Of a stretch of 64,000 bases of DNA, positions 2 to 56,700 are shown one piece after another. The position numbers and the translations under genes were made by a program. Each line of letters begins with the position of its first letter. The stretch's first letter is position 1. Source of the stretch: Bilabrum cf. latius (Eukaryota). The notes beneath the pieces were generated by a model that saw only the letters and a list, made by a program, of their open reading frames with translations, was not told the DNA's origin and ran no database searches. Location of the stretch: assembly GCA_965178125.1 (NCBI GenBank), contig OZ237766.1:62001-126000 (forward strand), in the 5' to 3' direction.

Positions 2-2818
2 GAGACGGGGGAACTGCGTGTGGGCGAGGAAGAAGGAAAGCAGTCCGTGGAGGAAGCCGGGTCACTCGCTCGATTGGCGAGCGAGGGGGGGAGGACGGGT
101 GCGCTGCTGGGCTGGTTTGCGGAGGCAGGTCGCGATGCAATCGGCGCGGGGGCTGGCAGCAGGTAGGCTGTGGCAAGGGAGGCATGGGAGCGGGCGGCGG
201 GTTTGCCCACCTCGGTTGGCGCTCGAATGCATGCGGTGCTGCGGGCTATCTCGATGGCGTGGCAAGATGGCGACGATGGAGACACGTGTTCCCTGGGTCA
301 GGGCTAGTGGCAGGAGGACGTGCTGCGGGGGGTCTGCTTCCACGTCGGTGCAGCGCGCTCTAGTGCTATCAGTGCAGGCATCGGGGCCCTGCGCGCTGCG
401 GTGGAGTAGTGTCTGAATGGACTGGCAGGGGCAGGGGCAGGGGCAGAAGTCGACGGTGACTCGGCTCGTGCGACGATAGAGGCCATGCAGGGGGTGTTGG
501 GGGCTAGTGAGGACATACAGGGGAGACCTGGGCACACAGCGACAGCCGTATCTGCAGTGCTCGGCGAGGCCGTGGGGCGAGAGGCGGGGCGGGCGCTGGC
601 TGTGCTGCAGCGCGCGAGTGTGGGAGCAGGTGCGGCTGATGCGGGTAGCCAAATGGTGAGTGAACTGCAGTGTGATGCTGCCGCTCGAGCAGAAGAGGTC
701 CTGGAGGCTGCCCTGGCGGAATGGAAGGCGGCTGGTGCTGCTGCTAGGCAGCCCTCGGGTGCATCGCATGGTGGTGCAGGCCAAGGTCGGTCCAGGCAGC
801 GCCGCAGCCGAGTTCCTGGGGGTGTGTCGGTGGCGGTGCTTGGGGAAGCCGCCAGTGCCGCTTCCGGGGCTAGAGAGCAAGGGGCTAGAGAGCAAGGGGC
901 TAGAGAGCAAGGGGCTAGAGAGCAAGGGGCTGGAGAGCAAGGGGCTGGAGAGCAAGGGGCTGGAGGCACGGTTGCTCGCACTGGGTGCCCGGCTGGAGGC
1001 ACGGTTGCTCGCACTGGGGGCCCGGCGAAGGAGGACGCGGGGGGCGAAGGTGGTGGGGGGTAGTAGGAGCAGCGAGACGAGGAGGAGGGGGAGTAGGAAG
1101 AGGACTGGATGGATGCGGCGGAGAGGGAGGCTGCCAGCGGGGCAGGTGCATCGCACGATGGCACAGAGCTGAAGATCCTACCGCTTGCTCGCAGGGCGGC
1201 GCTGGTCTCATCCGGGCTTGCCCGCGCGAATGCAGTGGTCGGGGTGCTTGGGCCGTTCTGCGCGTGCCTCGGGCATGGCGGGGGTCACAGAGATGGCACT
1301 GGCCCTGATGGTGCTGCTGCTCCTGGTGGGTCTGTAGGCGCTTGGTTACGGGCTGGGGTCGAGGAAAGCGAGGCAGGACCTGCCAAGGGGCCTCTGTTCT
1401 CTGTAGACAGGGGAAGCGCCGAAGGATTCCGCCGGTGGTGGCCTGTCCTGAGGGTGGGTGCCGTCGGGGGCCGCATGCGCGAAGAGGTAGAGGACGAGGC
1501 AGGTGGCTACGGAACTCTTCCGATGGTGCTAGCGCAGCTCGAGGCAGGCCAGCGCCTAGGGGCCCGGACAGGGGGCGAAGGTGAGGCAGCCAGGCGCCTC
1601 ATTGGTGGGGACAGGACTGGTCCCGGGGGCGAGGGAGGGTCATAGGAGGGGGCACAGGGGGGGGCTGGGAATGCACAGCTTCAGCTGCCCTCCATGGAGC
1701 AGCTGTCGGTCTGGGTCGCACAGGGGGCGGTGTCCCATGTGACGAGTGCGCATTCGTCACATGAAGATGCTCCGCCTGCGAGTATCCGGGAGCAGGTCAA
1801 GGTGGGAGGCAGGCTGGCGGTGAGCGAGCTGGCGGCGGCGCTGGGGGGCCCGCTGCTGGACGCGGCTTGTGCCTTGGACTTGGACTTGACCCGGGTGACG
1901 AGTGGGGGCTCACAGCAAAGCGTGGCATCTGCTGCGCTGGGACAGGCGCTGGTGGACGTGGCGGGTTGGCTGGAGCCCGTCGCGAGCGGGCGGCAGCTGG
2001 CGGAGCTGGAGTCAGCCCTCGAGGCTGGGGGGGTGCTGGGTGCGCGGGGGCTGCGGTCTGCGCTGCAATGCAGTGCCATTGCGGGCAAGCAGTCCCATGT
2101 GACCTTGCGTGGAGTTGTGAGCACCACAGTGCGATGCATTCTGCGGGCAGGCGAAATAACTTCGGGAAACACCAGGGATGGTGATGGAATTGTTGATGGG
2201 GGTGAGGCAGAGGCAGAGGCGGGCTTGCTGGAGGTGCTGCTGGGCGGGGCCACTGGGGGGCAGGGGCATGGGTCTGTGTCGCTGTCCAAGGGGTTGCTGG
2301 GGTTTGCCTGCAGGGCGGCGGGGGCGGGGCTGCTGCTGGCGGCGTGCACTGGTGTGATGAGTGCCGGCAAAGACCCGGTCGGGAGGAGCGAGCGACTGGC
2401 CAGCGCCGGACGGCAGGTCTGGGCTGACGGGTGCGGGCTGTGCAGCTCGATCCGTGCCCTTGGACTCGAGGGAGACAGTGGTCCGGCGGGTGTGACGAGT
2501 GCTATCGGTGCTCTGCTGGTAGGGGCTCCTGAGGATGTGCTGGCCCTCGCGCGGGGCGGCTCGGGAGGGGCAGGGGCAGGGGCTGAGGGAGGGGCGGAGG
2601 CAGGGGCAGATGATGTCAGCAGTCCAGGGGGTCCGGGTGTGGTATCTAATGGTGACGGTAGCAGCGACCGGGCGGCAGTGTGGGAGGTGCTGGCCCGAGC
2701 TGCACGATGCAGGAGCATAGAGGAGACAATGGGCTGTCTCCGTGGGGCCGGTGCGGGGCATTCCGCGGTGCAGGCGATGGCTAGACTCGCCGCCAGTGTG
2801 CGGGGTATCCTGCTTTGA
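2..2818 (+). CDS. Hypothetical Ala/Gly-rich protein, 5'-partial (UAG read as sense)
   Basis: Track ORFs 485-1063, 1109-1645 and 1694-2818 share one frame. The frame is open from position 2 except for TAGs at 164, 305, 407, 1061, 1064, 1094 and 1643, and it ends at TGA 2816-2818. No domain recognised. Confidence 0.65.
866..1018 (+). repeat. Coding minisatellite: ~6 x 15 bp (GGGGCTRGAGAGCAA; GAREQ/GAGEQ) followed by a ~33-bp duplication
   Basis: Tandem units read directly from the sequence; unit lengths are multiples of 3. Confidence 0.9.
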
Positions 2819-3036
2819 ATGAAATACTTGGTGTTGCGACATACTTTGTTGTACATGCACCAGTCGGATGCGTTGTCAGACGGTTGTCTTGCTGGAGGTT
2901 CGCTTGCCGACAGGGATTCCCTTCGGGTTCGTTCGTGAAGCAGGTGCTTGAATTGCTGCTGTGTGCTTCTCAATTGCGGCGCACTGCCAGCATAGCAACT
3001 CCTTTTTATCAAACATAATATACTCACGCTTGCTTT

Positions 3037-6000
3037 ATGCTACTCATTGCGTGCATGCATATTTGGTGCTGCATACTACTGGCATTCAACGCACGAGCTG
3101 CAGTCCATCGAAGCGCGGAGCGTGATTCTACGCTTCCCCAGGCCGCTGCAGGACCACTTATTCGTTTATCTCGTAGTTTACCTACTTCGGGTCTCCCGAG
3201 CGCAGTGCTGCTCAATAATTTCCGCGTTGCTGTGAAACGCAATCTGGCACGTCGAATGATGGCCGATTTAGTCACCGGTCTACCGATTGGGAGGGTGGTC
3301 ATTACACGTTCTATTGTGTCAGATGATGTGGCGATTTCGATGGCTCAGTGGATCCATAATAGATTCCCGAAGCTGCCTGTCCACCTGCCGAGCCGCACTT
3401 TGGGTTTCGGCAACAAAGCAGAGGCTTCCATCTACAAAAAGACTGACTCGAACCTGATGTTTGTCCCAAGGCGACAACCACTAGGCAAAGAACGACAAAA
3501 GTGCTGGGGCGTATCGTTGATCCCGCCCAAGGGCGGTTCATGCGGCGGTGCCTTCTCCCTCGACGGCTCCCGCGCGTGGATGGACCTTTTGCTGGTAGAT
3601 GCACGGGCTGTGTGCGGGCCGCATGGTGAGCCAAATGGAGCAGGCACTAACCAATCTGACCCCTTCGATGACCCAGTCCCTTTCCTGCGGGGCCTAGAGG
3701 CCTCAAATGAGGCGCTCATCATGCTGCTGGACGGTGCGGATGCATGGGCCGGCAACCACAGGGGCGGCGATTGGCCAGAGGAAGAGCTGGGGTCAACAGC
3801 ACATGAGCAGTCGGTGCATCCTGGATCACGGAAGTGCTTAGATGTAGTGTATCGATGGGTGCACCGCACTGCAGCTTATCTCAAGGATGATGCAGATCAG
3901 CAGGAGGACGAGGACGACTCATAGGGTATTGTCCTGGGATCGAATCCCGGTGGAACACAATCATCCAGCTCGAGGCTTTCCTCGTCCTCGCGTAAATCAT
4001 TCCTGCTGCCACAAGTGGTGGCCTATGGTGCCGGCAGCTACTCGAACAGTGGCAGCCGTCCGCCTGCCGTGGCATACCATGTGCGCACACACGTGCTGGG
4101 GACTGGTGCATCGCATGGTGGTGCATCTGCTCAGACCCAGACCAGCGGCCCCCGCCCCACGGAGGGTTGGTTCCTCCCCGTGTCTCCTCAGGGCATGGGC
4201 GCGGCCCGCACGGCCCGCCTGGCATACTCACACTCGGATGAAGAGGAAAAGGAGAAAGGTGAGCGAGGACTCGATGAAGACTCGATTCCGCTGGTGCTGT
4301 ATGACGAGTGCATCTCCACTAAGGAAAGGCCCTGCGACCGAGGCCTCTTCGATCCACGGGTGGATTGGGCAGCGGGGGTGGGCAGCATCCGGCACCTGCC
4401 CCTGCGGCTGGACTCGGAGGGGGGGGGGAATGGGATGCGGGTGGTGGGCGGGGAGCACCCCTGGAGCAAAGCAACTGATATCGGGCAGGTGCCGCCGATG
4501 CCGTGCCTGCACCTCGGCGTGGCCCCGGGGTGGATGCATCGCATTGCAGCGGCCAGCACCGCGGGCTGCCTGGTGCTGCCGATGCGATTGGAGCCGCTCG
4601 GGCCGGGTGGCTCTGTGACACGACTGGAGGACCGGGCTCGCGTGCTAGGGCTAGGGGTGTCGGACGGGACCATGGAGCGGGGCGCCTCTCTGCTGGCCCA
4701 GGCGCCTGGAGTGCCCCTGCTGCACGCGGTGCGGGCCCTGCAGGGGCAGGACCACCTCGCTCTCGTGAGCGCGGGGGAGCGGTTCCTAGAGTCCACCGGT
4801 GGAGTGTCACGAGTGACCACCGCCACCCAGGGGCCTGGCGGGGGCTCGGGAAATGGGATCCAGGAACGGTTGGTCTCTCGTGAGTTGGAGGGGCTGGGCC
4901 AGCTGGCAACCGTTGCCATGGTGCGAGCAGCCACCGCGGATCCTGCCCTGCAGCGGCTCCTCACCCCAATGGTGCCGAGGGGGGGCAAGGCCCCGGGAGC
5001 AGAGGGACAGGTGCCCGGCAAATTGGTCGCACGCGCTGAGGGGCTGGACCTGCTGTTGTCCCAGGGGTCATTTACCCCCCTCATGGGGGGCACTGCCATC
5101 GAGGCGTGGAGGGGGGGTGTAGGTCTGGGTCATTCTGCAGGTGGGTCCCTGCAGCAGGCCAGCAGGAGGGCTGCACTCCTGACCATGCAGGGGCCGCCGG
5201 CCAGTCCAGAGCGGGTGCTGGCACTGGTGCACGAGGCTATGGGAGGGGCTCATGCAGGTTACGAGGGGCCAGGGGAGAGTGTAGGTCCCTTGGACCACGA
5301 CCCTCGGCTGATGCCCAGCGCTGTGCGCCGCCTGCACCGAGACCTCATGGAGTAGCAGCACCCCCCGAGTGACGAGTGCAGCTCCAGGCGACTGCTCCTG
5401 TTCCGTTGGGCCGACGAAATGCGCACGCAGGGACTAGCAGCCATGCTGCAGCACCTGGCTGCCTCCTTGGCTCTGGCTCGAGCCCTCAACCGCACGCTGG
5501 TCGAGGTGCCCAACGCAGACGCGCCCGGGGGGTGGCCTGCTTGGGAGGCGTACAGCGGTGTGACGAGTGAATAGGGGAGTGCCGCGCCCCCTCTTGCAGA
5601 CGAGTGGTTCCGCGCCCCTCCTGAGCAATGTGGGGGCAGGCTGTTCGGGTGCTACTTTGAGCCACTGAGCAGCTGCACCATCGGATTGAGGGACGTGCCG
5701 CCCCTCGATGGTGAACAGCAACAGGGACAGGGGCAGGGACACGAAGCCGGTGGATACCCGCGGATGGATCAAACGGAGCTGATCCCCGCTCTGCCCACCG
5801 ACAACTAGTGGGTATACGGGCAGGTGCACTCGTCACAACACGACCTGCGAGCCCCGCTGTCAATCGAGGAATCCATGGCGGCGCGCGTGCGGTCCTACCT
5901 CCAGAGCGGGCGGCGGGATAGCAGGAGGGTGCTGCGCGTGGGGCTGATCCGGGACCATCGCGCGGTGATGCGACACGTGACGGCAGAGTGGACGGGGGCA

Positions 6001-6933
6001 CCCGAGTGGTGGGCGGCAGAGGCAGGCCCGGGTGGTCTGGGGCGGGGCCTGTGGTTCGCTGGGTTCTCTGCCTATCTGTGGAGGCCCCGGGCCGGGCTGC
6101 TGCTTGCTAGCGGTGCTTTCGGAGACATGGTGGGGGGCATGCGGCGGGCGGGGGCGGGGTACCTCCTGCAAGCCGAGTGCTTGCGCTCCATGTCCATGAG
6201 TGCGGCGGGGCGGGGGGGAACCCGGATTGATAGGTAGCGTGCACTTTCAGCGGAGTGCGAGCTAGCGCGAGGGCTGCATGCCACCGCAGCGAGGCACCGA
6301 CACGATGCAGGCGATGGCACCGACTACGGTACAACCGGAAATAGCCCCGGGCTAGACCCAGATCCGAGCCAAGATGCGCCCCTGCCTATTCCCCTGGGCC
6401 CCGTGTTTGCGCTGCACCTGCGGCGCGGGGACACCGCAGGTCTGTTCTACCGGGGATAGGCGGGTCTGCACGGGGTGGTGGGCCCGGCCAAGCGGCTCGT
6501 GCGGGCCGTGGGGGCCCCTTGTTCCCTGGCCGTGCTGGCCTCCGACTGGGCGCGGGCCAGGGAGATGGGGCCGGTGCACGGTGCCCCAGAGCTGGAGGTG
6601 GGCATAACGGGCGCATCTGTGGTAACATCGTAGGAGAGCGGTTTCGGGGGAACTGTGGAGCACTTGCTCGGGGAGGCATCCGGGTTCCGTCACCGGGGGA
6701 GTGCCCGGCTGCTGTCGGTCGGGGTCATCATGGACCTGCACGCGATGTCTTTCGCCACTCACCTGGCCGGGTCCTGCGTGTCGCAGCTGAGCCGACTGGC
6801 GGCGGATCTTGCCCTCGGATTCGGGCGGCTGGCGGGCAGGCCAGTGGGGTCGGATGTGCAGGAGTGCGGCATGCTGCAGCACACGTTCGCCGTGGAGCAG
6901 GGCTGGAGAGAGGATTTCCGCACGGGGCCGTAA
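3037..6933 (+). CDS. Alpha-1,6-fucosyltransferase-like (FUT8/GT23-like) glycosyltransferase; start uncertain
   Basis: One frame interrupted only by TAG (3922, 5353, 5572, 5806, 6235, 6457, 6631), ending at TAA. FUT8-like motifs occur in order: *QHPPSDECSSRRLL...LALARALNRTLV, CYFEPLSSC, PVFALHLRRGD (cf. PVIGVHVRRTD), VLASD, and VIMDLHAMSFATHLAGSCVSQLSRLA (cf. [25 protein letters not shown]). Confidence 0.75.
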
Positions 6934-7252: not shown

Positions 7253-9886
7253 ATGATGGCCAATAAGCATCAGTCTAGAATATATGCAGTGCGTGCATAC
7301 AAGCGATTGTGGGGCCATGCTGCTGGTTCATGTAACGTTGTGTCGCAGCTAGCCACCAGCACGATACCTCAGTTGGATGCACGCACGAAGGGGTGCGACG
7401 ACAATGGATACCACGGATCAAGCCTTGCTAGTGACATGCATGCAGCTGCGAAACGAAGACCCTTCCGACCAGTTCTGCCATTGAACGGCTGGGCGGCACT
7501 CATCGACGAGCAGCGATCGTTGGACTTGAACAGTATACCCACTTGGACACATTGGATCAAACAAAAGCGAACTCTGGGGGGGTAGAGTGTGAGATTACCC
7601 CAACATACGCCGGTTGTCACGGCTTGCTTTGCTTTCTCCGACGTTGCTGGAGCTGGCTTTGGGCGCAATTTGGATGTAGAGCAAGCCACTGCGGCTCGCC
7701 TCTGCCATGGCGTTGCCCACGCGATTGACCCATTTGCAGCATGCGACTCCATTCGAAGCGCGCTTCAATGGCCCGTGGGTGCCCTCTTCGTCGATGCAGA
7801 GCAGACAGGGGTGTACGAGGTCGACACACCGCAAGCACCGCCGGTGGCCGAGCGAGACAGCTTTGCATATCGTGCATGCCCTACGGGCATATTCGGCCCC
7901 GGTCGCAATTTCACCCCCGAGGGCTGGGGTCTGCCCCCAGCTCCCGTGCTGAAAGACATTGCCTGTGACGAGCAGCTCTCGAGCTGCACTCCAGCAGCCG
8001 AGCAGCCGCCGCCTCCCACGGTGCGGGTGCGCGGGGCCTCATTTCACGGGGGCCCGCGCAACTGGCAGACCGTGTGGTGGTGGGCCATGCGCGGCAGCAG
8101 GGTGCTCCTGGCCTTTCTCTCGCCGGGCATGACCCGGAGCCAGAACTGCCTCAAGGAGCTGAAGGTCCTGCGGATGGCCTGGAGGCAGTGGGGCGAGGGT
8201 GAGCAGGGGGGTCGGGAGGGTGCACCGCACTGCGGGGATCCACCAGGGGGCTGGGGCACTGGTGCCCCTCCCCTGCCTATGTTCGTGTGCTCTGGCTGGG
8301 GGGGTGGCACCACCAGGGAAGGAAAGGAGAGCGGCGTGGAGAAGGAGAAGGGGGAGGAGAGCGGCGGGCTGAGACAGACAGCAGTGGGAGAGGTGCAGCG
8401 CACGATGCGGGTCATCGCACAAGCAGTGGAGTCCCGCATCCGAGCTAGAGCCAGCAGATGCGCTCGTCACACCGAGTACGGTCCTGTAGAATGGTGCGAA
8501 GCGATGCTTCCGCACTTGAAGCGAGCCTGTGGGGGCAGCTCCCGACGCGCAGCCCAAGAATTGACACCGAGTGTAGTGCATGAGACAACAAGGACAGCCC
8601 CGGGCCAAGAATTGACACCGAGTGTAGTGCATGAGACAACAAGGACAGCCCCGGGCCAAGAATTGACACCGAGTGTAGTGCATGAGACAACAAGGACAGC
8701 CCCGGGCCAAGAATCGACACCGAGTATAGGGTATGAGACAACAAGGACAGCCCCGGGCCAGTGGCAAGCGCTCGCCGAGTCTCCCCTTGTGGTCGATGCA
8801 CCGGGGAGTGGGCTGTTCCTGCACCCCAAGAGGGGGACAGACACAACCACCACCACCAGCACCAGCACCAGCACCAGCACCAGCACCAGCACCAGCACCA
8901 GCACCAGCACCAGCACCAGCACCAGCACCAGCACCAGCACCAGCACCAGCACCAGCACCAGCACCAGCACCAGCACCAGCACCAGCACCAGCACCAGCAC
9001 CAGCACCAGCACCAGCACCAGCACCAGCACCAGCACCAGCACCAGCACCAGCACGATTGATGCCCTAGTGTCGCATGCAGGTCTCCTCGGACTCGCAGTG
9101 CATCGGCTGGGTGTATGGCTGGGCGCGGGGGACAGGGGCACGTATGCTAGCGAGCTGCTTGCCGACCACCAGGCGGGCTGGGACTCGAGGGGGGAAGGTG
9201 GGAATCAATTCTATGGAACCTCGTGGGATGGAGAGGTGCATGGCATTGCCGTGCAGGAGGAAGGGCCCGCCGCTCCCCGGGACGACCTTGGTGTGCCACT
9301 GCGCAACCCGCACAGAGACACGGGTCGTTGGGTCTCTCCATGGGCCGTGCTGAGGAACAGGGCGCTGGGGAACACGGTGCGCGCGGGAGTGGCATCGAAG
9401 GGGGCAGCTGCTCTCCGGTAGTGTGCTTTGGAGCTGTGCAAGGCGCAGGAGCTGCAGGCGGGGGGCGCGCTGTGGCCCTGGGAGGGCATGCAGGCCGTTG
9501 GATGCGGGGCGCGGGGGGATGACCGGGGCACAGGCGCTTTGGCAGGGTGTGATGAGTGCCATTGCGTGTCTGACCAGTTTAGTAGTGCACTAGTGCTGGA
9601 CCCCAGGCGGGTGGATGCGGGTCTGGGTTTAGGTGGCAATGGAACTGGCCATTCGACCGCAGTCGACGGGCAAGATCGCCAGCAGCTGCACGCAGACCCG
9701 TGCCACACACCAGCGACAGTCCGACGAGAAGGCAGGCCACCTGCTCGTCCACCCGGCGACTGGAAGCCCCGGATGGAGCGGGCCATATCGCTGTGCGGGG
9801 ATCGGTTGGGGAGGGCCCCATGGGCCGGGGAACAGGACCTGCTGGACGCTTTGAGAGAGAGGGAACACAGTGCAAAGCCGAGCTGA
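7253..9886 (+). CDS. Hypothetical protein with a TIR-like motif and internal repeats; start uncertain
   Basis: Track ORFs 7253-7585, 7589-9421 and 9428-9886 are in one frame, joined by TAGs at 7583 and 9419, and end at TGA. The segment AMRGSRVLLAFLSPGMTRSQNCLKEL resembles the TIR betaC-alphaC region. Confidence 0.55.
8554..8760 (+). repeat. 4 x 51-bp coding tandem repeat (QELTPSVVHETTRTAPG)
   Basis: Three identical units and one diverged unit, contiguous, with no spacers. Confidence 0.95.
8853..9054 (+). repeat. (ACCAGC)n hexamer microsatellite encoding poly-(Thr-Ser)
   Basis: About 33 perfect units visible directly. Confidence 0.95.
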
Positions 9887-10006
9887 TCTTGACTCACCGT
9901 GGTGCAACTGCCATTGATGGTGCTTGGCACCGTTCTGTGCGATTTACCCATGTTGATGAGATAAACAGCTTCAAACGCAGCTTGTCACGGCCAGTATCAA
10001 GTAAAA

Positions 10007-11722
10007 TCAAAGCATCTCTCCGTCCCCTCCCATGGCCCCGCCCGCCACCGCACCGCCAGCACTGGGCAGCGCGGCAGCAGCCGAGGACCCCCCGCTCCCC
10101 CCACTGGCCGCCCCCTAGCCCTCCCCCTCCTTAGGCCCCAGCCCCTTCTCCTTGAAGAAGTCCCTCAGTATCTCCCTGCACCCATCGATGGACCCTACGC
10201 CCCTCTTGAGCAGCACCCTGGCCATCCACGGAGACTCGAGCATCTCCACAGCGGTCGGCCTCTCCTCGGGGTCCTTGCGCATGGCCCCGCCGATAAAGTC
10301 CAGGAAATCGTCCTGCAGGCCCAGTTCCTTGGCCTGTTCCCCGCCCTTAGGAGGCACGGGCACGGGCCCATCCACGATGGTGGTCACGTATCCGATGGTC
10401 GAGCTGCTCTCAGGGTACGGGTACTTGCCCAGCGCGCACTCGAGCAGCACAAGCCCGATGGCCCACACGTCGGCAGGATACGAGTACCTCTCGCTCTGCA
10501 TGCGCTCGGGGCTCAGGTGCTTGAATGTGCCCACGAAGGTCTTCGCCATGAGAGCGGTGGTCACCTCTTTGCTCAGACCTGCGGCGGGGGACAAAAATCG
10601 CAATCACGGGCCCATGCGATCTATTCGTTGTGCGGGCGCGGGGGGGGGGGGGCATTCGAGGCGATCCCAGGCAGCACAAATGGTGCAATCGGATCGTACT
10701 TCCTCACCAAAGTCGGTCAGCTTCGCGCTTCCATCTGACGCGCACAGGATGTTGGCAGGCTTGATGTCCCTGTGCACCCGCTTCTCCACCTGCATGTACC
10801 CGAGGCCCCACAGGACCTGGAAGGCGAGTGCGGCGAGGGGAAGCTCAGGGAACCGGCCCACCTTCCGGATCACGGTGTCAAGGCCCCCCAGGTCCATGAA
10901 CTCCAGAGCCACTGCGACCTGGCCCTCGCGGTAGCTGCGGGGGGAGAGAAACGAGCACTGAACCAAAGTCTGGTCAACACAGATGTTAGGCAGAAACGAG
11001 CATGCCCACGGGAGGGACCATTTGATGCCATATCAACTGCATCCATACGGGTTTGAAATCGCAAGATTCACATCACACGGAGTATGGCTGCTCACGTTGC
11101 GCCGTGAAACTCGACCAGAGCTTCGCAGTCAGCGGTGAAGAGGGCGCGCAGCTCGCTCATCAGCTGGTGCCTCATCGCCTTCACAAACACGCTAATGCAC
11201 TTCAGCGCGTACATTTTACCAGTTGCCTTGTCACGCGCCAGCTTTACCGTGGACGAAGCACCGGCACCGAGGTCGCGGAGCATCTCGAGGTCGCTAAACT
11301 TGATGCTGCTGCCGCCGGATCCAGCGATTGATACAACGCCATCGGAGTCCTCTGAAGAGCCTCCGGATCCCGGAAGCATTACACCTGCGCCCGGTTGTTG
11401 GCACACATTTGGGAAGGATGTATTTTCTACTAGTAGTGGTTTTGCACCTCTCCAAATCTTGACAGTGGTGACTTGTATGTGCGAGCTAACCTTCGTCAGT
11501 GATACGTACACCATGCGCCTCGAATCCATCGCCATCAACCTTGAACGAGGCCTTCTTTGCCAGCTCCTTCCCAGCAGCCTGAGCGCCACCAACAGCTGCA
11601 GCAGTTGCAGCCGCGGCCGTCGATGTACCAGTCCCGTCCGACGAAGAGGCCTCCGTCGCATCACTGTCCTTGACAGCAAGCTTGAGCCCAAGTTTCATCT
11701 TTCGCTTTCTAGCAGCCGCCAT
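10007..11722 (-). CDS. MAP kinase kinase (STE7/MAP2K family), 4 exons
   Basis: Kinase motifs LGAGASSTV, YALK, HRDIKPAN, DFG, TFVGTFKHLSPER and DVWAIG. The N-terminus KRKMKLGLKL resembles a MAPK docking site. GT-AG introns at 11385-11490, 10935-11095 and 10579-10707 restore the frame. Reading the TAG at 10115 extends the tail to TGA 10007-10009. Confidence 0.9.
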
Positions 11723-11929
11723 TTTTAGCGCAGATCAAATACCTGGAGGCCAGCCACCTGATCCGACCTGCGCGCAGCTTGCGGTCGCAACCAATCTTGA
11801 GGGGCGTTCCGGAGGTTGCAACCGGAAAGCTGGTCGCAATACAGAAGGGAACCTCGGGGAATCCTTCCTTCTCATCTCCTGGGCCTTCCAGGAATGTCAT
11901 CGGGTGATGTGGCTGCGTAGTCACGATCT

Positions 11930-38930: not shown

Positions 38931-38963
<33 letters not shown>

Positions 38964-43864: not shown

Positions 43865-43896
<32 letters not shown>

Positions 43897-46800: not shown

Positions 46801-49800
46801 TGGTGTGAATGGTGTGACGAGTGCGGTGGCAGAGGCCCAGCAGGTGCGTCCGCTCATGCTCTCGCCCCAGCCCGCGCCGCATACGGGCTCCGGCTCCGGA
46901 TTTGGTGTGACGAGCGCACCCGTCTCAACCTCCACCCCACCGGCGCAGCATGCGGCCTCCCTGCTCTCACCGGCGCCGCGCAGCGGAACCGCCTCCCCAG
47001 CAGGCTCCCAGGCCACCGCCGGCCTCGAGGACGCCCTCGACAGGACCGCCCTCCTGTCCCCCGCACTCGTCACACGGGGCGGGAAGGGTGCCCGGCCCCG
47101 GATTTCCGTGGGCGCTGCCGGCGCCCGGTGGGGCGGGCCCTCCTCGGGTGCCGGGTCTGGTGGAGTCGTCCACAGGGGCATGGGCAGGGGCATGGGCATG
47201 GGCAGGGGCATGGGCTTGGGCATGGGCATGGGCATGGGCATAGGCAGATCACCGGCCGGGCTATCCCGCGGTGACGTGTCCGCATGGCTTGAGTGGGAGG
47301 CATCTCCCGGCCGATCGGAGCTGGAGGCAGCCGCGGGGTTCGAAGAGCCGCTTCTTGAGGCGGCTGTGAGGCACGGCGTTAGGGCCATGAAGGCGCGTGT
47401 GACGAGTGCGAGGCGCTCTCGGTGGGCGGCGCTGGTGCGTTGGGCGGCGACGGAGGGTGCTCGGGTGCCGACGCAGGTGCGGGGCTGCAAGGCCCGTGGA
47501 AGGTGTGACGAGTGGGTCCAGCGGGCGCTGGCAGCTCGCGTGCAGCAGTTCAGGGCGAGCCGTCCGCACCTGTGGCTGGGGTACACGATCCACCGAAGGT
47601 TCCCCAAGCACGGGCAAGTTCGCCGGCTGGGACTGGACGAGGCGTGGGGCATGTGCGCGAGGGGGGAGGCGGAGGGGCTGCTGCGGGACATGGCAAGGCA
47701 GGCCAGGGAACAACCAGGGCTGGGGGCACAGCTGAGGAAGGTATTTCTGCGGGCCGTGCCGGTGACCCCCTGGGTGGCTCCACCGGTGGATGGCCAGGGA
47801 ACAAGTGAGACCGACACCGGCGGTGGTGCCAGCCTGGGTGCGGGGGCCCGCAGCCTGCTGCATCTGGCTTTAGGTGCTAGCGGGCGAGGCCTCGAAGGTG
47901 GAGGGGGAGCAGCAGCACGAAGCTATGCCAAGACCAAGAGGCCCAGTAGCCCGGGCAGCTCCAATGCAGGCGGGGAGGCTGCTGCCAACTCGATGCCGCT
48001 GTCAGAGGAGCAGGCGGACTTGCTGCTGCCTACCTCTTTGGCCGCCGATGCAGACCCATGGGATGCTGACATGCCGGCGGGGGTGCGCCGGCCGGTAGTG
48101 CGTGTGGATGGGCTGCCTTCGGGCTGGCTGCAGGGGGTGCACAATCAGGACGACAGCCTGCGTGTGGCGAGTGCGGGGGCCTTGGGACGGGTGCTGGGGG
48201 ATGCAGTGCGGCGGGTGCTGGCAGAGGGGAAGAGTGGTCAAAGCGACCACGGTGATCAAAGCGGCGCGCAGGGGAAGGGTGGACAAAGCGGTTCCGCTGT
48301 AAATCTCGCCTCTGCTGTGGCGGATGCGGCGCGAAAAGCCGGTGTCGCCGTAGCAGAGGGTTTCGAGGCGAAGGCTGCGGGGGCCGCTGCATCACGGCTG
48401 GAGGAGGCAGGGGTGCCTAAAGATACCACCAGTGCCAGCAGTGGTGGCGCTGCTAGTGAGGGATCCAGATCGATGGATAGCGACCAAGATTCGAAGAGCT
48501 CGGTGGCAAAAGGCAGCTCCACCTCTGCACATGCTAGTGGAGGTGGTGCCGCGCAACAATCGCCACTCGTCACACCGGCCTTGCCGTCCTGGGTGCAGCA
48601 GTCCGTGGGGGCAGAGCGCGCCCTCCGTCGCGCCGAGGACCGCATGGTGGAGGGCGGCATGGAGGCCAGGTGTGTGCCTGTCAAGAGCATGGCCAGGCCG
48701 TCAGACGGGCCGCGAGCCGGGCTCATGCGTCGGATCGAGACGGCGAGGCGGGCGGGCGTGCCGGAGGGCGTGCTTGCGGACTGGATGCAGGGGCTGGAGC
48801 GCGCCGTGAAGGGGCTGGAGATGCACCTGGGCTGCAGAGGGGATGGTGAGAGGGAAAGGAGTGGAGAAGGGGACAGGGATCAGGAGCAGGACGGGCTGTG
48901 GGACGTGACGGGTTGGCTGGAGGGCAGGGGCGAGGACCCGGTGCCGCTCGCCTCTTCTTCTTCTTCTTCTTCCCCTTCTTCTGATGCGGCTGCTGCATCC
49001 TCTTCATCGTCTTCTTTCTTGCATTCTGGTTCAGGGCGGACACGCCGTGGGTTTGGCACTCCGAGCGCGGTGCACGTGCTGGTGGGCAGGTCCCTGCCGC
49101 AGCTCAGGAAGCAGCGGGCGGCGGCTGCTCTCGCCATGGAGCAGCTCGAGGAGCGGGAGCGGGAGCAAGCTGGGGGGAGTGGGCGCAGCGGGTCTGGTGG
49201 AGGGCTTCGTATGAGCAGCAGTGCAGTGCAGGCTGCGAGCTGGTCGTCCTCCCCAATCGGCGATGGGGACGATGATAACGAGGATGGTTGGTCCTCCAGC
49301 GGGGGCTCGGACGCAATGGGAGAAGGAGAGGAGGAGGACCGGGCTGCGCCGCGATTCGATGCATCCATGCCTCGCAAAGACACGGACCCTCTTGGCCCCG
49401 GTCGGCTGGTGGGGCTCAAAGAGGCCTTCAGGGGGCTGAGGCGGATGCTCAGGCTAGTGCCACAGGTGCTGGCGGGCAGGCTGGTGGAGAGGGCGAGCGC
49501 GGCCCGGGGTGCCAGGGCGCGTGCGTGGCGGGGGAGGAGGGAAGCAAGGGCCAGGGCGCTGGTGCTGCGTGCCCAGGGGCTGAAAGAGGGGTGTGACGAG
49601 TGGGATGCGGCCATGCGGCAGCTGGAGTCGCAGGGCTGGATTCCTGTGCCCAGCGCGGTGGGTGTGGAGCATGACCCTGACACGTTTGCTGACGTGTTGG
49701 CGGAGTTGTAGGTCCGCCTAGAGCAGAGAGCTGACGAAGAGGAGGGCGGAGACGACGATGCTACTGCTGGGGAACAGATGGTTGCAACCAGTGGATCGGC

Positions 49801-50553
49801 TGCATAGGCGCAGCAGCCGATGGCAGACGGCACGGTAGACGATGTCGCCTCTGCACCAGCAGCCACCATGGAGGGCGACCGGGCCAGCTCGGCCGGGACT
49901 GGCACGGATGCATCGCAGTCTATCCAGGAATTGAGAGCACCCGGGTAGCTGGCGGGCAGCGGTGTTCAGAGAACCAGACACGGTGATGGAGAAGCAGGTG
50001 CAGAGGCCGGTCGAGGGGCTGGCTAGTCGGCTCGCTCGGCAAGTCAGGTGCCGCAACAGAAAGCAGTATCTCTCGATGGTGCAGGTTAGGCCGCTATGGA
50101 GCAGGACGATTGCAGCCATGGTGCATCGCATGGTGGTGCAGCCATATCCCGGCCTCCCTCGCAGCAGCAGATGTTCGCAGGCAGCAAGGAAAAGAAAGAA
50201 TTTGACGCTGGTGCTGGTGCTGGTGCTGGTGCTGGTGCTGGTGCTGGTGCTGGTGCTGGTGCTGGTGCTGGTGCTGGTGCTGGTGCTGGTGCTGGTGCTG
50301 GTGCTGGTGCTGGTGCTGGCAGTGCTATTGCAGGGATCGATGGCGGGCACCGTAGGGGCCCTGAAGCTGCTGCAGAGGCTACTCCTCCACCAGCCAAACG
50401 CGATGGCAACGATTAGCCCAGTGAATACAGAGGTGTGCACAAGGCAAGTAATGAGGGGGCAGGGAGAGAAGCAGGCACCAGCCATCAGCAGCCACCCAGC
50501 GCTGCACTGCCAATCCAAGCCCCGGCCGATGCTGCTTCTGATGCTGCCGCTGA

Positions 50554-50648
<95 letters not shown>

Positions 50649-52219
50649 TTGGGGCAGCCTCGAGAGCACCAGCCAGGAATGCACGCGCATCGCAGTGCAG
50701 TGCGCCCAGCAGCCCGCCCACCACCCGCCGCAGACTCAGGTCCAGACGAAGCAAAGCCGGCAGTCGGGCTGCAACGTCCAGGGAGGCATCTGAGGCATCT
50801 TCGGTACTACACGCGAGTGGGTCTGGCGAGTTGAAGCACAGCGCAAGCAGCCAATCATCTTCAGGTGCAAGCCAGAGCCAAGCCGACGACAAGGACAAGG
50901 ACAAGAACAAGGACAAGGACAAGGACAAGGACAAGGACAGTGTTGAAGACACTACCGGAGGCAAAGTCAAGAGCTCAGGTTCTATCGTGGGGTCCAGACC
51001 AACAGGCCGCCGCCGGCTCCCCAAGCCGTCGTCACCGTCAGCACCGTCCTTCCCTTCGATTCCCGCGAGATCATCGGTGCGGCTTGGACTCAAAAGGAGC
51101 AGGAGCACTGGCACTGGCACGGGCACAGGCAGGAATGACGAGGCGCGCAAAGGTGCAAGGGGATCAGGAGGGAAGGAAGAAGCGGATGGGCAGGGACAGC
51201 GACAAGGACAGGGGCAGGAGCAGGGGCAGGCGGGGGGTCCTCAGTCGATCGGTGCATGTGTGGATTCTGTTGCACCAGCAACCTCGAATGCAGAGGTAAG
51301 CCCAGCAACAGAGGCAGCGGCAGAGGCACCGCCCGCCAAGAAACCCCGGCATGCACGCAGAAAGGCAGCTCAGGTAGCGATGACAACCTTGGGAGGCAAT
51401 ATGAGCGCTTCTTCTTAGCCCCAGTCTAAGCCAAGGGTGCTGGGCGAGGCATTCAGCAGCCCAAAGAGGCCCGATCGGGCACATGATGCGCCTGGTCCCA
51501 TCGATGCAAGCGTTGATAAATCCCCCGCTGTGGATCGGCTCAGCCGGCTGCTGGCTAGCCCGGGAGATGCGGACGCAGCTTCTGCCGGTGCATGGCACGG
51601 TGGTGCGCGCCGGGCCCGCCGGGTGCGTGTGCAGCGTACAAGGGTGAACCAGCAGAGCTTTGAGCTGGAGGTCTCTGCCTCATCCACCTCTTCGGGGTCT
51701 GGGTCTGCAGGTGAGTCTGGACCGGGAGGGCCAGCATAGAGCAAGTCAATAGACTAGTAGCGAGGTACTGCCTCTGGGTCTGCAGGTGGGTCTGGACCGG
51801 GAGGGCCAGCATAGAGCAAGTCAATAGACTAGTAGCGAGGTACTGCCTCTGCTGCTGCTGTTGGGGCTCATGGCGCAGTGGTGCAAGGTGACGAGTGCAG
51901 CACTGTGCCCAGCACCACCGGACACGAGCCCTCCACTGCGTCCACGCCAGGGTCTACCCGGGGGAGCAGCAGTCGAGGGAGGCAGGGGCGCACCCAGGGG
52001 AATGACCCCACCATGGGGGACTCCTCCCCCACCCGGGGTTCTGCCTCTGCCTCTGCCTCTGCCTCTGCCTCCTCCTCCTCCCCCGCGACCTCAAGCGGGG
52101 CGAGCCCCTCCCTCAAACGCCGAGTCAGACGCAATTCAAAGAGGGGCCGCCGGCTCAAGACGTACATGGATCCGCTGCGGAGGGTGCTGGGGTCACCTGG
52201 GTCTCTCGGGATCAGTGAT

Positions 52220-52251
<32 letters not shown>

Positions 52252-53365
52252 AGACGAAGAAGTGGAGGAGTAGGCAGGGGGAGTCAAGGGGACCGCGCGA
52301 GGCAGCCGGCTGCCAGTCCTCGGGAAGGCCTCCTCCCATCGATCCCATGCCAGGGGGTCGGTGGCAGTGAGCGGCGGCGGCAGTGCCCATGCTGGCCCTC
52401 TCGGGGTCAGGGCTGCCCTCAAGCCCTCCTTGTTGTGCTCCAGAGCACGGGCAGGTGTGACGAGTGCAGCGCGGCGGCGTGCGGTGGGTGTCCCCTTGAA
52501 GAAGCGGGGTAAGGGGAAGGCTAGCCGCAGCAGTGCAGTGCAGTCTCGTGGTTGGCAGGGGGGGCAGCAGTCGCACTGGGACGTAGTGTCGTCGCCAGAG
52601 CCCAAGCCAGGGCAGCAGGGTGCATCGCACGGTGATGCGAGCAGTCTGGCTGGGGTGGCCGTGGGAAGCGACGCGTTCCAGCCGAGGCACATCCTCGTGG
52701 GCCGGGGACCAGGGAACAAGGAAGGCAAGGAAGGTGATGAGCGCACGGGTGATGGACCTGGACCAGGCATCGCCAGGCGCCGCCGCCGGACAGTAATGGT
52801 CACCCCGGGTTCCCTGGGGCACACCCTGGGTGCTGTTGACCCCAAGGTGGGGTCAAGTCCTGGATGGCGGGCGGCTCGCGGCGGAAAGAAGGCTGCTTTG
52901 GGATCAGGCGTGGTGCCTGCAGGCAGAGCAGTTCCCAGGCCTCTGGCATCTGCGTCCTCGGGGTCAGCGACGGGTGTGTTCCTGAGGAAGGGCAAGCGCA
53001 AGGGCAAGCTCTCAGGAAATGTGACGAGTGCGAGCAGGAGGGGCGTGCTGAGGAAGGCAGGGGCCCAGGCAGCGGCAGTAGGTGCCATCGCTCCTGCAGG
53101 CCACCGTGTTCTTGTTGGCAGAGGCGTGTTGTCACCTGCAGGCAGGGCGAGCACTCCATCGAGGGACCGCAGCAGGGGAGGCAACCTGGCAGGGGGGGAG
53201 TGGTCACCGGGTGATGAAGTAGTGACAGGAAAGGTGGAGAAGCTGAGTGCTACTAGATCTAGGGTGCAGCGGACGGACAAGAGCAACAGCAACGCGGCCC
53301 GGCGGTCTTCGTCGGGGCAGAGAGGGGCTATCCTGCCCAGATCAAGCAGGCGGAAAGCACACTAA
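42134..53365 (+). CDS. Giant (~3,740 aa) low-complexity protein with one C2H2/U1-type zinc finger
   Basis: Eight track ORFs (42323, 43958, 46145, 50096, 50435, 51437, 51878, 52361) lie in one frame. The gaps I read contain only TAG (about 18 in total). ATG at 42134, TAA at 53363-53365. Zinc finger CEVCGETYAGGALAEHIKSRVH at about 46466-46531. Confidence 0.7.
50210..50319 (+). repeat. (GGTGCT)n microsatellite, poly-(Gly-Ala)
   Basis: Visible directly. Confidence 0.95.
50555..50647 (+). repeat. (GCTCCT)n microsatellite, poly-(Ala-Pro)
   Basis: Visible directly. Confidence 0.95.
51698..51850 (+). repeat. 75-bp near-perfect tandem duplication (2 copies), each copy carrying 3 in-frame TAG codons
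   Basis: Units start at 51698 and 51773 and differ by one base (GAG/GGG). Confidence 0.9.
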
Positions 53366-53707: not shown

Positions 53708-56700
53708 TCAAAATCTACCATCCCCACCAACTCCGGTGCTACCACCCCCCGTGCTGCCCCCCACAAGGGGGAGGGACCCCCGCCTGGGCCCCTCCTCGCT
53801 CGCCCCTACCCCTCGAAGCACCGCCTCACGCTGCACCTGCGCAGGAGACATGGGCTTCCTCCTCCTCTCCCTCTTCTTCTCGTGGCTGCCTGCGGACCCC
53901 GGCTCCATTTCTTGCCCCTGCCCATGCCCCTGTCCCCCCAGCTGCAATCCGCTCATCTAATGCAGTCCGCTCATCGAGGCCGCATCCCGCCGGGGAGGAG
54001 GCCTAGGCCGGGGTGTGAAAGGCACGCCCCCACCCCCACCCCCATCCTCGTCCCTATCCTAGACATGCAGCTGGTCAGACAGGGCCCGTCTCCCCGCCCT
54101 GGGGGGCTACATTCTGGCTCCGGACGCATTCAAGGGGGGGTCTGCCTGCGGGGCCGAAAGGCCGCGCAAGGATGCGGGTGACGAGTCTTTCTCCTTCACG
54201 GCATGCTTCCTGTTTCCTCCAACTTCCTCTTCACCTTTCCACTCCTGCTCTTTTTCCCGTTGCTGCTCCACTTCCCCTTCGCCTTTATCTTCATCTTCCC
54301 CATCGTGCTGGGCTTCCTGGGCGCGCTGTGCAACGACTCGGGCCGGGCCCTGTGTGATGTGTGACGAGTGAGCGCGCTTGTCGGCCGCCCGAATCGCCTC
54401 CCAGCCCGGCACGTCCTGCTGCCCTTGCCTCTGCCTCTGCCTCGTCCCATCATGGCCCCCTGCCTCATCTGGCCCAAGCGCAAGCACACCCGGTGCATCC
54501 CCGAGCGCCAGTTCCGGTCTAGACGACCGGCTGACGATGCTGCGGGCCACTGACCCCGCCCTACCCCCGCCAAGGAACAAACCCCTGGGGGGTGCCTCGG
54601 CTGATGAAGGTTCGCTGGGGTGCACCGAACCACCGGGCCGGTGGCCACCACGGCTCGATGATGCCTGCACCCCCGCCGTGCACTGCCCCTGCCGCTACAA
54701 CGGATCACTCGTCACACCACTCGTACCCGTCGCCACAATGTTGCCGCCAATAGTAGCAGCAGCTGCCGTAGCACCAGCACCAGCACCGGCACGAGAGGTG
54801 GCAGTGGTCCCGCCGGCCAGCAGCACCTCGTCCACTAGTGGATTTGCGACCGAGCCCACCCCACTGAGGAAGGATCCGGAGTCGAAATCACCCGTGTTCC
54901 CTCCTACATCTTCGTCCTAGATTCCGGCGGGCTATGGCAACCCCCTGCCCCTGTCCCTGTCTGTAGACCGGAAGAACCTCCCACCACCGGAGCGGCTGCC
55001 CTTGCCTTGCAGCTCAGTGTGCCGTACATGTCCCGATTTATCTATCCCCTAGGGCTGGTTCCTTTTTCTATCAATCACCGTCCTCATGTCCCCCCGTGGT
55101 GCCCCCCAATATCCTGGGGGGCTCCACCTCGTCCCCACCGCCCGGTCTCCACGGACTGGGGCTGTGGACGGGCGCGATGTGCTGCGGTCGCTTTCGAGGC
55201 CTCTGCCGCGCGTAGTGGGCCGCACTGCAGTGCCGTGCGACTGCCCTCTCCAACCCCCACCCAATCGCGAAGCCTGTTCCTGCCCATCGTACACAGAAAT
55301 GTGCTTCTTGGGCTGGTGGTACTGCTGCTGCTCGTGCTCCGGCTTTAGCTCCGGCTGGTGCTCTTGCTTGGCACCTACCACGGTTGGCAGCGCGATCCTG
55401 ACTGCTTCATCCCGCATTTGCTTCTCACTCTCACTCGCAAGTCGCGCCGAAGCAGGCCGTCCCCTGCCTTTCTTTCTGCCTGCTGTGCCACCATCCCCCC
55501 AGCCCCTCGCACGCAGCGAGATACCATACTTGGCTCGGGCCCCTGTCGTCGTCACACCTCCTCGCCCGACTGGCATGTCTCTGCCGCTAGTCGACACTCC
55601 ATCAGGCATGTCTCGGTATCCTACGCCTCCGTGCGGGTGCGCGCCACTTTCAGTGTGACGAGTGCTGCATCTAGGCCTGCTGCCACCCGCGCCCCTCTTC
55701 TCCACATCGCCCCAGATCAGGCCACGCAGCCGACGGAGCAGGGGATACTCGTCACACCGAGGCACCCACCCGGGAGCTGGTGGCCCTGCATACATACCCA
55801 CCACTGGCGATGCATGGCTCCCTCCCTCGTCCTATCCCCCGTGTTCGTCCTCCTCCTCCTCCTCCTCATGTTCCCTGTCTCGCCCCTTCGCACCCGCAAG
55901 AGCTTCCTGCATTCGCCTCGCCTGTTCCCTGCCAACGCGCTCCCCTGCAGACTCCTTAATCGTCACACCACTCAGAGGAACACGGGGCAAGCCTGCACGT
56001 TTCCCACCCGCACCCGCGTGCGATGCACTAGCTCCACCCGCGTCGGAGACCTCCCTCTCCCTCGCCCTGGATGTGGCTGTGGCAGTCTTCGGGAGCCTTC
56101 CGCCCGCCTGCTGCAGCTGCCTACGCAGCTGTTTCGCACCCTATCTGACCCCTGTAGCTGCACGCATGGCCCCCTGCACCCCCTGCAGCAGCACCGCAGT
56201 GCGATGACCCTGCCCCCCCCCGCCATCGCCCCCCCCGCGCCCATGCTCTGCCACCGCTGCCCGCCCTCGCTTCTCTATCGGATCCAGTGCCTCCAAAGCA
56301 TCGTCACTCGTTACAGTGGCCAAGTCAGCGTGCTACCGAGCATGCACCACCATGCCCTGCACCTCAAGCGCAGCCGCCAGCTGCAGATGAGACGCGCCCA
56401 CGTCCACACGTACAGCAGCACGCGCGATGCCCAGATCATCCATACCGTCCTAGTTGATACTGCTGCTGCTGCTACTGGCAGCGGCCCCAGTACCTCGACT
56501 ACCCCTGATACCCCCCTGTACCAAGTGCCGCTGACGGGCGCACGCGCAGGCCAGAGACCCCTGCGCGGCGAGCACGGCTGCGGAACCGAGGCGCCGCGCA
56601 TCCTGCGACTCGGTTCCGCTCGCTGCGCCACTAGCCCTGCCACGATGCTGGGGCAAACCGTGCCTCCCACTCGTCACACGGGCGCGCTTCAGTGCACCGG

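Follow-up and report, generated by a model that had tools for sequence, protein, structure and literature searches.

Dispersed, hyper-abundant DNA words are a classic bacterial puzzle, and uptake sequences, HIP1 (highly iterated palindrome 1) and Chi have revealed machines that read the whole chromosome. Chi, KOPS (FtsK-orienting polar sequences) and other architecture-imparting sequences are over-represented, oriented 8-mers, read by a DNA-processing machine and skewed with replication direction. Uptake sequences are short words present in hundreds to thousands of copies, at about one per kb on either strand, which the uptake machinery of naturally competent bacteria binds; they are also common between genes, often paired in inverted orientation at terminators. 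The Rickettsia palindromic elements are selfish palindromic insertions of 100-150 bp that lie in frame within protein-coding genes, and HIP1 of cyanobacteria (GCGATCGC) spreads by substitution. HIP1 is an 8-bp palindrome linked to cognate methyltransferases and distributed quasi-periodically, as set out in PMC13756078. Bacterial uptake sequences located in genes double the tripeptides they encode, prefer poorly conserved genes and residues, and impose little constraint at extant sites; of all uptake sequences in three bacteria, 65%, 49% and 34.5% fall within open reading frames (ORFs), according to PMC2817400. Here we describe a dispersed 12-bp word, GTGTGACGAGTG, in a 64-kb stretch of contig OZ237766.1 (the window) which, to judge from its genes, comes from a GC-rich, uncultured cellular eukaryote.

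The resemblance to these systems is close in behavior and incomplete in definition. Like the DNA uptake sequences (DUS) of Neisseriaceae and the uptake signal sequences (USS) of Pasteurellaceae, which are non-palindromic words of 9-12 bp (PMC2817400), GTGTGACGAGTG recurs every 1-2 kb or so on both strands, has common mismatched copies, lies many times inside genes with a preference for poorly conserved ones, and inflates the tripeptides that it encodes. Its host, in contrast, carries CCDC113/96, F-box, JmjC and exosome RNase PH genes, that is, it is a eukaryote without a known competence system. GTGTGACGAGTG shares with HIP1 a central CpG-containing core and the nature of a DNA-level word that saturates the DNA, HIP1 its genome and GTGTGACGAGTG the 64-kb window, including coding regions in any frame, but it is a 12-bp non-palindrome (by direct reading) with Poisson-like placement. 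Like Chi and KOPS it is an over-represented, oriented oligomer; its orientation appears to follow the strand of the gene, changing several times inside the 64-kb window, for which base composition would account. As with the Rickettsia palindromic elements, we are dealing with dispersed repeats in ORFs that are translated within the host protein, although GTGTGACGAGTG measures 12 bp and comes without arms, target duplication or evidence of insertion. The analogy to HIP1, Chi and uptake sequences drawn in a first-pass annotation of the window therefore remains the best behavioral fit (poorly conserved genes, tolerated frames, inflated tripeptides, decayed copies), but no feature that defines any of these families was found. 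Given its non-bacterial host and non-palindromic sequence, we do not class GTGTGACGAGTG among them.

The first-pass annotation had reported some 32 copies of the 10-mer GTGACGAGTG, and all of them were recovered in place, 22 on the plus and 10 on the minus strand. By comparison, 100 dinucleotide-preserving shuffles of the window yielded 0.11 copies on average (sd 0.31, largest value 1). The 9-mers of GTGTGACGAGTG also rank first in enrichment in the window under an order-4 Markov model (34 observed versus 1.4 expected). Alignment of the 32 copies revealed T at position -1 in 26 and G at position -2 in 25, but G at position -3 in only 14, so that of the GGT prefix proposed earlier the last two letters stand and the first does not. 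The base directly following GTGACGAGTG is T in none of the 32 copies, and information content lies at background level beyond positions -2 to +11. The real unit is therefore the sharply bounded 12-mer GTGTGACGAGTG, present in the window in 22 exact, 17 one-mismatch and 22 two-mismatch copies (Table 1). All-against-all BLAST with 300 bases from each side of the 39 best copies uncovered no flank homology, only overlaps between neighboring search windows and simple repeats, and comparison of each flank with the whole window returned no paralogous site spanning a copy. GTGTGACGAGTG is likewise unrelated to tRNA or Rfam families, whose sole match in the window is a tRNA-Ile. Inverted pairs of the kind that uptake sequences form at terminators are absent from the window bar one: a 26-nt near-palindrome (ATGTGACGAGTGCGCATTCGTCACAT, 1737-1762) in which the one-mismatch copy at 1737 (+) overlaps a two-mismatch copy at 1751 (-).

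Several lines of evidence place this signal at the DNA rather than the peptide level. As annotated in the first pass, the word is translated as VTS, CDE, TRH, LVT or HSS depending on frame and strand, and all five readings were recovered; ORF 46049-49708 alone carries it four times as VTS (one of these a one-mismatch VAS), twice as CDEW and twice as opposite-strand LVT. We then assessed codon choice in 16 confident genes (14,936 codons, 44.8 kb). Fourteen of the 18 VTS tripeptides are encoded by GTG ACG AGT, for which codon usage predicts 2.2%, and all seven CDE tripeptides use TGT, a codon that makes up 21% of Cys codons. These coding sequences hold 25 copies of GTGACGAGTG, whereas 1000 protein-preserving synonymous shuffles gave a mean of 1.15 and a maximum of 6, and shuffling codon order left 0.08. 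The counts thus lie far above those of the codon- and amino-acid-preserving shuffle against which the first-pass claim of a DNA-level signal was to be held. The proteins themselves are affected: simple arithmetic from amino-acid counts predicts ~3.2 VTS and ~0.65 CDE tripeptides, versus the 18 and 7 found, and the word has therefore reshaped them.

We also mapped the copies onto coding and non-coding DNA. Every one of the 32 exact copies of the 10-mer falls in an ORF, and the remaining 13.4 kb (21%) of the window are empty of them (P about 5.5e-4); a second delimitation assigned the 39 copies with zero or one mismatch to ORFs, again with none in 12.2 kb (19%) of non-coding sequence. Chance near-matches with four or five mismatches reach in non-coding DNA 72-93% of their density in ORFs, and differing composition (GC 0.56 in non-coding DNA versus 0.66 in ORFs) is therefore not the cause of the gap. 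This confinement sets GTGTGACGAGTG apart from DUS and USS, of which 34.5-65% fall in ORFs in the data that PMC2817400 gives for three bacteria. It means either that the underlying process is tied to gene bodies or that intergenic DNA is more tightly constrained than disordered protein segments. Among the ORFs, exact copies are missing from the ABCF, 6-phosphogluconate dehydrogenase (6PGD), Rieske/AIF-like, metallo-beta-lactamase, RNase PH, 2OG-Fe oxygenase, methyltransferase and CCDC113 genes, in keeping with the earlier remark that ABCF3 and gnd have none; the other Pfam-recognized genes contribute one (pectinacetylesterase) and two (F-box/JmjC). Density rises to 0.8-1.6 exact copies per kb in domain-less ORFs and is 0.18 per kb in an ANAPC2-like ORF. 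Six of the seven motif-rich ORFs scanned lack a Pfam domain and the seventh, 23536-29259, has a sub-threshold match only, which bears out the previously noted clustering in weakly constrained ORFs; the length also ascribed to these ORFs, however, exists only if TAG is a sense codon. Within permissive regions placement is Poisson-like (variance/mean 0.72-0.97 in 500-bp bins), and no periodic spacing of the copies was found.

A distribution of this kind could reflect selected protein-binding sites, each copy being a high-affinity site (12 bp, ~22 bits) for a chromatin or other architectural factor in gene bodies, placed where the code allows; the genome-wide binding site suggested in the first-pass annotation may be of this kind. 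The restriction of 32 of 32 copies to gene bodies, the occurrence of both orientations and the high, sharply bounded information content, which resembles that of a site for about four zinc fingers, all speak for such sites, as does the composite-site-like association of a second word, TGCGCGGCGCC, with GGTTCCGC at variable spacing. Nevertheless, an 18-kb stretch (9558-27584) is free of copies, which in the rest of the window are placed at random and without regularity; eight of the ten Pfam-recognized genes have no exact copy although their synonymous sites could host some; and decayed copies are as numerous as exact ones, so that individual sites are weakly conserved at best. We regard selected binding sites as an unlikely explanation, albeit one of some weight.

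Exact and one-mismatch copies within the 16 confident genes were scored for orientation and frame, leaving out six copies in two ORFs of uncertain model or strand. Twenty-six copies are sense and seven antisense (3.5-4:1), a ratio that chance near-matches share (174:52 with four mismatches, 802:349 with five). Both the word and the sense strands are rich in G, which is enough to account for the bias, and equal ratios are what would be expected if copies grow from pre-existing near-matches. This equality also takes away the chief reason to invoke a cis element that acts in mRNAs at the RNA level, for instance a site bound by a guide RNA or by a modular RNA-binding protein. That explanation would accommodate the 26:7 ratio, the lack of copies in non-coding DNA and the presence of several copies per long transcript, but the seven antisense copies in 44.8 kb far exceed the ~0.2 expected (exact plus one-mismatch, both strands), and the 12 nt of the word show a paired fraction of 0.53 versus 0.54 in controls, arguing against a hairpin. 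Minimum free energy around copies is slightly lower (p 0.026), which we ascribe to GC content, and among 16,384 7-mers none was enriched as a partner motif within 90 nt of copies (best p 7e-5). An mRNA element is thus improbable in our view.

Reading frames are used unequally, with 17 of the 26 sense copies in the VTS frame, eight in the CDE frame and one, a variant without TGA, in the third. No copy that retains TGA occurs in coding sequences in the frame where this triplet would terminate translation. We considered and rejected an interruption of ORFs or a recoding signal (SECIS- or PYLIS-like, frameshift or readthrough) at this TGA: of the 37 copies that bear it, only two are flanked in the TGA frame by 150 or more open codons on either side, and these two lie antisense to real genes. 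Linkage to in-frame TAG was equally absent, distances to the nearest such codon being no different from random (p 0.47 and 0.22; 5/39 copies within 20 nt versus 7.7%, p 0.22). The word begins with GT, often has a G before it and is biased to the sense strand, as an extended 5' splice site or introner signal would be if the long ORFs were spurious. Against this, frames run on across the copies and remain open for thousands of codons, a single ORF can hold the word in both orientations, and no downstream signal accompanies the word; no intron was seen in any of the ten Pfam-recognized genes, and conserved genes are collinear with their Pfam profiles. Assembled contigs of four sequencing runs contained no usable splice joint (short-sided joints at motif edges, with a side of 20-26, are repeat matches and were not used). 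A splice signal is accordingly a very improbable origin. Together, these data indicate that GTGTGACGAGTG is a genuine, sharply bounded DNA-level word and not a peptide motif, repeat unit, splice signal or RNA structure.

We found nothing in favor of an artefact, be it an adapter, a polishing error or a chimeric assembly. Assembled contigs from runs of two studies, one of which may be the source of the window, carry the motif sites of 38938-50150 with 0 differing letters. Copies 39110, 43956, 48162, 48564 and 49591 are unchanged in contigs of runs X1 and X3 from one study and X5 from the second, and the X1 and X3 contigs also cover unchanged copies 42957, 43758, 46812, 46905 and 47064. Moreover, decayed copies exist, and copies are filtered against the stop-containing frame, which only evolution does. 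The chance that the word is an artefact is, in our judgment, close to nil.

The spectrum of mismatched copies bears on how the word arises. The 16 genes hold 18, 15, 18 and 38 copies with 0, 1, 2 and 3 mismatches, respectively, whereas rough arithmetic that scales the four-mismatch class (226 copies) by combinatorial ratios predicts 0.006, 0.2, 3.4 and 33. Among the 17 one-mismatch copies, 12 changes are transitions, three of which fall at the CpG. This equals the share expected for two of twelve positions, and the candidate explanation of a hypermutable CpG was dropped for lack of excess. A single burst followed by decay also fits poorly, since the ratio of one-mismatch to exact copies predicts ~6 two-mismatch copies rather than ~13. 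Copies of GTGTGACGAGTG therefore seem to be in continuous birth and decay.

Insertion of a 12-nt unit, by templated insertion, as a transposon-excision footprint or as a tiny mobile oligomer, would add four codons and hence be tolerated in genes. The sharp boundaries, the absence of flank homology, the length in multiples of three and the several other short words dispersed in the same ORFs are what such a process would leave. On the other hand, target-site duplications are not evident (at best 4/32 copies versus 0.65 expected, among 196 combinations of boundary and length), and adjacent partial copies show no significant excess (5/32 versus a null of 8.2%). The orientation ratio matches that of near-match composition, and non-coding DNA, where insertions should be freest, has no copies. 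The single copy in a conserved domain, read GDEW in the pectinacetylesterase, lies in the stretch whose residues 5-126 match positions 216-321 of the family profile, and nothing there points to additional residues. The footprint of a tiny mobile element, put forward in the first-pass annotation, was thus not borne out by target-site duplications, flank homology or extra residues at this copy, and we hold 12-nt insertions to be rather improbable.

The reading that we favor, tentatively and at less than even confidence, is that GTGTGACGAGTG arises in place by substitution and that sequence-specific drive or recognition in gene bodies maintains it, with protein constraint filtering what survives. 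Copies would derive from chance near-matches through point substitution, and a process that recognizes the 12 bp would then raise and hold their frequency, either as biased repair or gene-conversion drive or as weak selection for a DNA-binding factor acting in gene bodies. Purifying selection on proteins would confine surviving copies to long, poorly conserved, low-complexity genes, where they may persist in two sense frames with harmless peptides, (G)VTS(A/G) and CDE(C/W). Single copies, not being strongly conserved, would decay by ordinary mutation, leaving a population in birth-death turnover and a net effect akin to that of a bacterial uptake sequence or HIP1. Of this picture, the DNA-level character of the word, its anatomy and distribution, its effect on the proteome and the range of decayed copies are observed here; origin in place, a recognizing factor and the drive are inferred. 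Several points weigh against origin by substitution and drive. The main fact against plain drive is that non-coding DNA has no copies, whereas neutral drive should load the least constrained DNA. No process by which a eukaryote would drive a word of 12 bp is known to us, and the other dispersed words may reflect a more general process at work. In addition, all the evidence comes from one 64-kb window, in which the gene models consist of open frames under a TAG-sense code plus Pfam matches. The remaining probability belongs to processes beyond those considered here.

At least two further dispersed words share the habitat of GTGTGACGAGTG (Table 1); together with TAG as a sense codon and the location of all copies in ORFs, they go beyond the first-pass annotation. 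The second word, TGCGCGGCGCC, has 15 exact copies (four sense, ten antisense and one non-coding) in all frames, usually 0-25 nt from GGTTCCGC or the complementary GCGGAACC, a partner with 19 exact copies that all fall within ORFs. In the stretch 56580-56620 the two arms surround the core, resembling a small hairpin element. The third word, GGTGCATCGCATGG, is always sense and in a constant frame, encoding GASHGG with identical codons in six of six copies across three to four ORFs. Its exact 21-mer extension also turned up in two Wohlfahrtiimonas genome records, the only hits of a scan of prokaryotic genome contigs, and neither record has the GTGTGACGAGTG word; we take this to be a coincidence. 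The 9-mers of a fourth word, CAGGGAACAAG, are ~13-fold above order-4 Markov expectation, and some of its copies are local protein repeats of AAGN type.

Table 1. Coordinates of dispersed words, host frames and recognized genes in the 64-kb window
Feature	Position	Strand	Context
Exact GTGTGACGAGTG	2490-2501	+	sense, read AGVTSAI
Exact GTGTGACGAGTG	5558-5569	+	sense, VTS frame
Exact GTGTGACGAGTG	31796-31807	+	sense, VTS frame
Exact GTGTGACGAGTG	32474-32485	+	sense, VTS frame
Exact GTGTGACGAGTG	34079-34090	-	sense to minus ORF 33387-35990, VTS frame
Exact GTGTGACGAGTG	34305-34316	+	antisense to minus ORF 33387-35990, read HSS
Exact GTGTGACGAGTG	34897-34908	+	antisense to minus ORF 33387-35990, read TRH
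Exact GTGTGACGAGTG	39110-39121	+	sense, F-box/JmjC gene, VTS frame; unchanged in contigs of three runs
Exact GTGTGACGAGTG	42957-42968	+	sense, VTS frame
Exact GTGTGACGAGTG	43758-43769	+	sense, VTS frame
Exact GTGTGACGAGTG	43956-43967	+	sense, VTS frame
Exact GTGTGACGAGTG	46812-46823	+	sense, VTS frame, ORF 46049-49708
Exact GTGTGACGAGTG	47064-47075	-	antisense, ORF 46049-49708, read LVT
Exact GTGTGACGAGTG	47397-47408	+	sense, VTS frame, ORF 46049-49708
Exact GTGTGACGAGTG	47503-47514	+	sense, CDE(W) frame, ORF 46049-49708
Exact GTGTGACGAGTG	48564-48575	-	antisense, ORF 46049-49708, read LVT
Exact GTGTGACGAGTG	49591-49602	+	sense, CDE(W) frame, ORF 46049-49708
Exact GTGTGACGAGTG	52455-52466	+	VTS frame of 41996-53362 frame
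Exact GTGTGACGAGTG	54359-54370	+	antisense to minus ORF 53711-57742, read HSS
Exact GTGTGACGAGTG	54706-54717	-	sense, VTS frame
Exact GTGTGACGAGTG	55653-55664	+	antisense, read TRH
Exact GTGTGACGAGTG	56668-56679	-	sense, VTS frame
One-mismatch 12-mer (ATG...), exact 10-mer	1737-1748	+	sense VTS
One-mismatch 12-mer (GGG...), exact 10-mer	1893-1904	+	sense VTS
One-mismatch GTGTGATGAGTG, C to T at CpG	2352-2363	+	
One-mismatch GTATGACGAGTG	4299-4310	+	sense, YDE
One-mismatch GTGTCACGAGTG	4804-4815	+	sole frame-0 copy; without TGA
One-mismatch 12-mer (GAG...), exact 10-mer	5367-5378	+	sense, SDEC
One-mismatch 12-mer (TTG...), exact 10-mer	5827-5838	-	antisense, HSS
One-mismatch GTGTGACGAGCG	8461-8472	-	antisense
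One-mismatch GTGTGATGAGTG, CpG transition	9547-9558	+	sense CDE
Exact 10-mer, TC prefix	27584-27595	-	sense in minus ORF 23536-29259, read RDEC
One-mismatch GTGTGACGAGCG	27669-27680	-	sense VTS
One-mismatch GTGTGACAAGTG, CpG transition	32580-32591	-	antisense
One-mismatch 12-mer (ATG...), exact 10-mer	33899-33910	-	sense VTS, minus ORF
One-mismatch 12-mer (GGG...), exact 10-mer	36808-36819	-	conserved pectinacetylesterase domain, read GDEW
Exact 10-mer, CA prefix	38754-38765	-	antisense, F-box/JmjC gene
One-mismatch GTGTGACGAGCG	46905-46916	+	sense VTS, ORF 46049-49708
One-mismatch GTGTGGCGAGTG	48162-48173	+	sense VAS, ORF 46049-49708
Exact 10-mer, AG prefix	51886-51897	+	GDEC in 41996-53362 frame
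One-mismatch 12-mer (ATG...), exact 10-mer	53019-53030	+	VTS frame
One-mismatch GTGTGACGAGTA	55746-55757	-	sense CDEY
Host frame	41996-53362	+	3,789 codons if TAG is sense (18 TAG), no Pfam domain, 12 exact 10-mers
Host ORF	53711-57742	-	1,344 codons if TAG is sense, no Pfam domain, 4 exact 10-mers
Host ORF	2-2815 (open at 5' end)	+	no Pfam domain, 3 exact 10-mers
Host ORF	3019-6930	+	no Pfam domain, 3 exact 10-mers
Host ORF	30562-32910	+	no Pfam domain, 2 exact 10-mers
Host ORF	33387-35990	-	no Pfam domain, 4 exact 10-mers
Second word TGCGCGGCGCC	32090, 36179, 39169, 40498, 40653, 42515, 43465, 44461, 44737, 44842, 45242, 46214, 46972, 56590, 56833		
Third word GGTGCATCGCATGG	758, 4105, 46154, 46652, 50120, 52619		often extended to a 21-mer
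Fourth word CAGGGAACAAG	6518, 43230, 46404, 47795, 52710, 60966, 61426		7 exact, 8 one-mismatch copies
ABCF3-type ABC-F protein	11.9-15.1 kb		Pfam; N-terminal extension
6-phosphogluconate dehydrogenase			Pfam
CCDC113/96 ciliary coiled-coil protein			Pfam, E 2e-29
Rieske/AIF-like oxidoreductase			Pfam
Metallo-beta-lactamase			Pfam
Pectinacetylesterase			Pfam
F-box plus JmjC/cupin protein			Pfam
RNase PH exosome subunit			Pfam
2OG-Fe(II) oxygenase			Pfam
Methyltransferase			Pfam

The genes of the window use TAG as a sense codon, as judged from their frames and family profiles, and two of them are unreadable under the standard code. In-frame TAGs occur at 36867-36893, 38911-38913, 39472-39474 and 21244-21246 and at more than 60 further sites. 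The pectinacetylesterase keeps collinearity with its profile across two of them, and the F-box/JmjC gene runs in a single frame through TAGs with Cupin_8 profile positions in order. In the Rieske motif F-D-V-[TAG]-S-G, the codon lies between an F found in 78 of 80 homologues and a G found in 79 of 80; its own column is variable, so that the amino acid at TAG is not inferable from it. Stops of the genes checked are TGA or TAA. Reading TAG as sense yields frames of 3,789, 1,908, 1,344, 1,304 and 938 codons, of which the largest, at 41996-53362, has an uncertain gene model past 49708, a part that holds a hexamer array and 13 of the 18 TAGs. Such arrays, (GCACCA)n and relatives at 50207-50319, 8850-9050 and 31856-31945, are open in all six frames and translate as AP, GA or TS runs that lengthen apparent ORFs. 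A literature search, largely of open-access journals, returned no GC-rich eukaryote with UAG-only reassignment. Annotation of this genome consequently needs TAG as a sense codon; otherwise its genes look like fragments.

The genome is compact, with ~80% of the window in ORFs, and its conserved proteins bear long low-complexity extensions. CpG stands at 0.80 of expectation in the window, and TpG and CpA at 1.23-1.25. ARAGORN and Rfam detected a single RNA gene, a tRNA-Ile (anticodon GAU, 29173-29245, minus strand) that borders the frame of 1,908 codons on its 5' side. Even the best homologues are remote, sharing 41% identity with the AIF-like protein and no more than 55% with ABCF; the named matches come from a bicosoecid, plants and Acrasis, and no close sequenced relative was present in the collections searched. 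A metagenome scan with the ABCF protein retrieved 14 loci, none with GTGACGAGTG, and only one of them (L001, 2.6 kb, 88% identity) was close. In viral contigs, a scan with a 14-mer returned 120 stretches, 117 with a single 10-mer and three with two, that is, chance level. A giant-virus catalogue had no bearing on the window, whose genes are cellular. Literature searches with exact strings and for over-represented or uptake-like words in eukaryotic coding regions, again largely of open-access journals, found no comparable word in eukaryotic genes; the exact-string matches listed were unrelated by title and abstract.

These findings raise the possibility, which we consider doubtful but worth stating, of a eukaryotic counterpart of bacterial 'genomic words', in which a drive or a gene-body recognition would seed a 12-bp word only in transcribed and translated DNA, would do likewise with TGCGCGGCGCC plus GGTTCCGC and with GGTGCATCGCATGG, and would thereby have rewritten the proteome (VTS ~6-fold, CDE ~10-fold) of a deep-branching lineage that reads UAG as sense. 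If GTGTGACGAGTG proves genome-wide, it would betray an unknown sequence-specific process that acts on eukaryotic gene bodies and alters protein tripeptides against codon preference, and the 12-bp word itself would offer a direct experimental handle on the factor that recognizes it.

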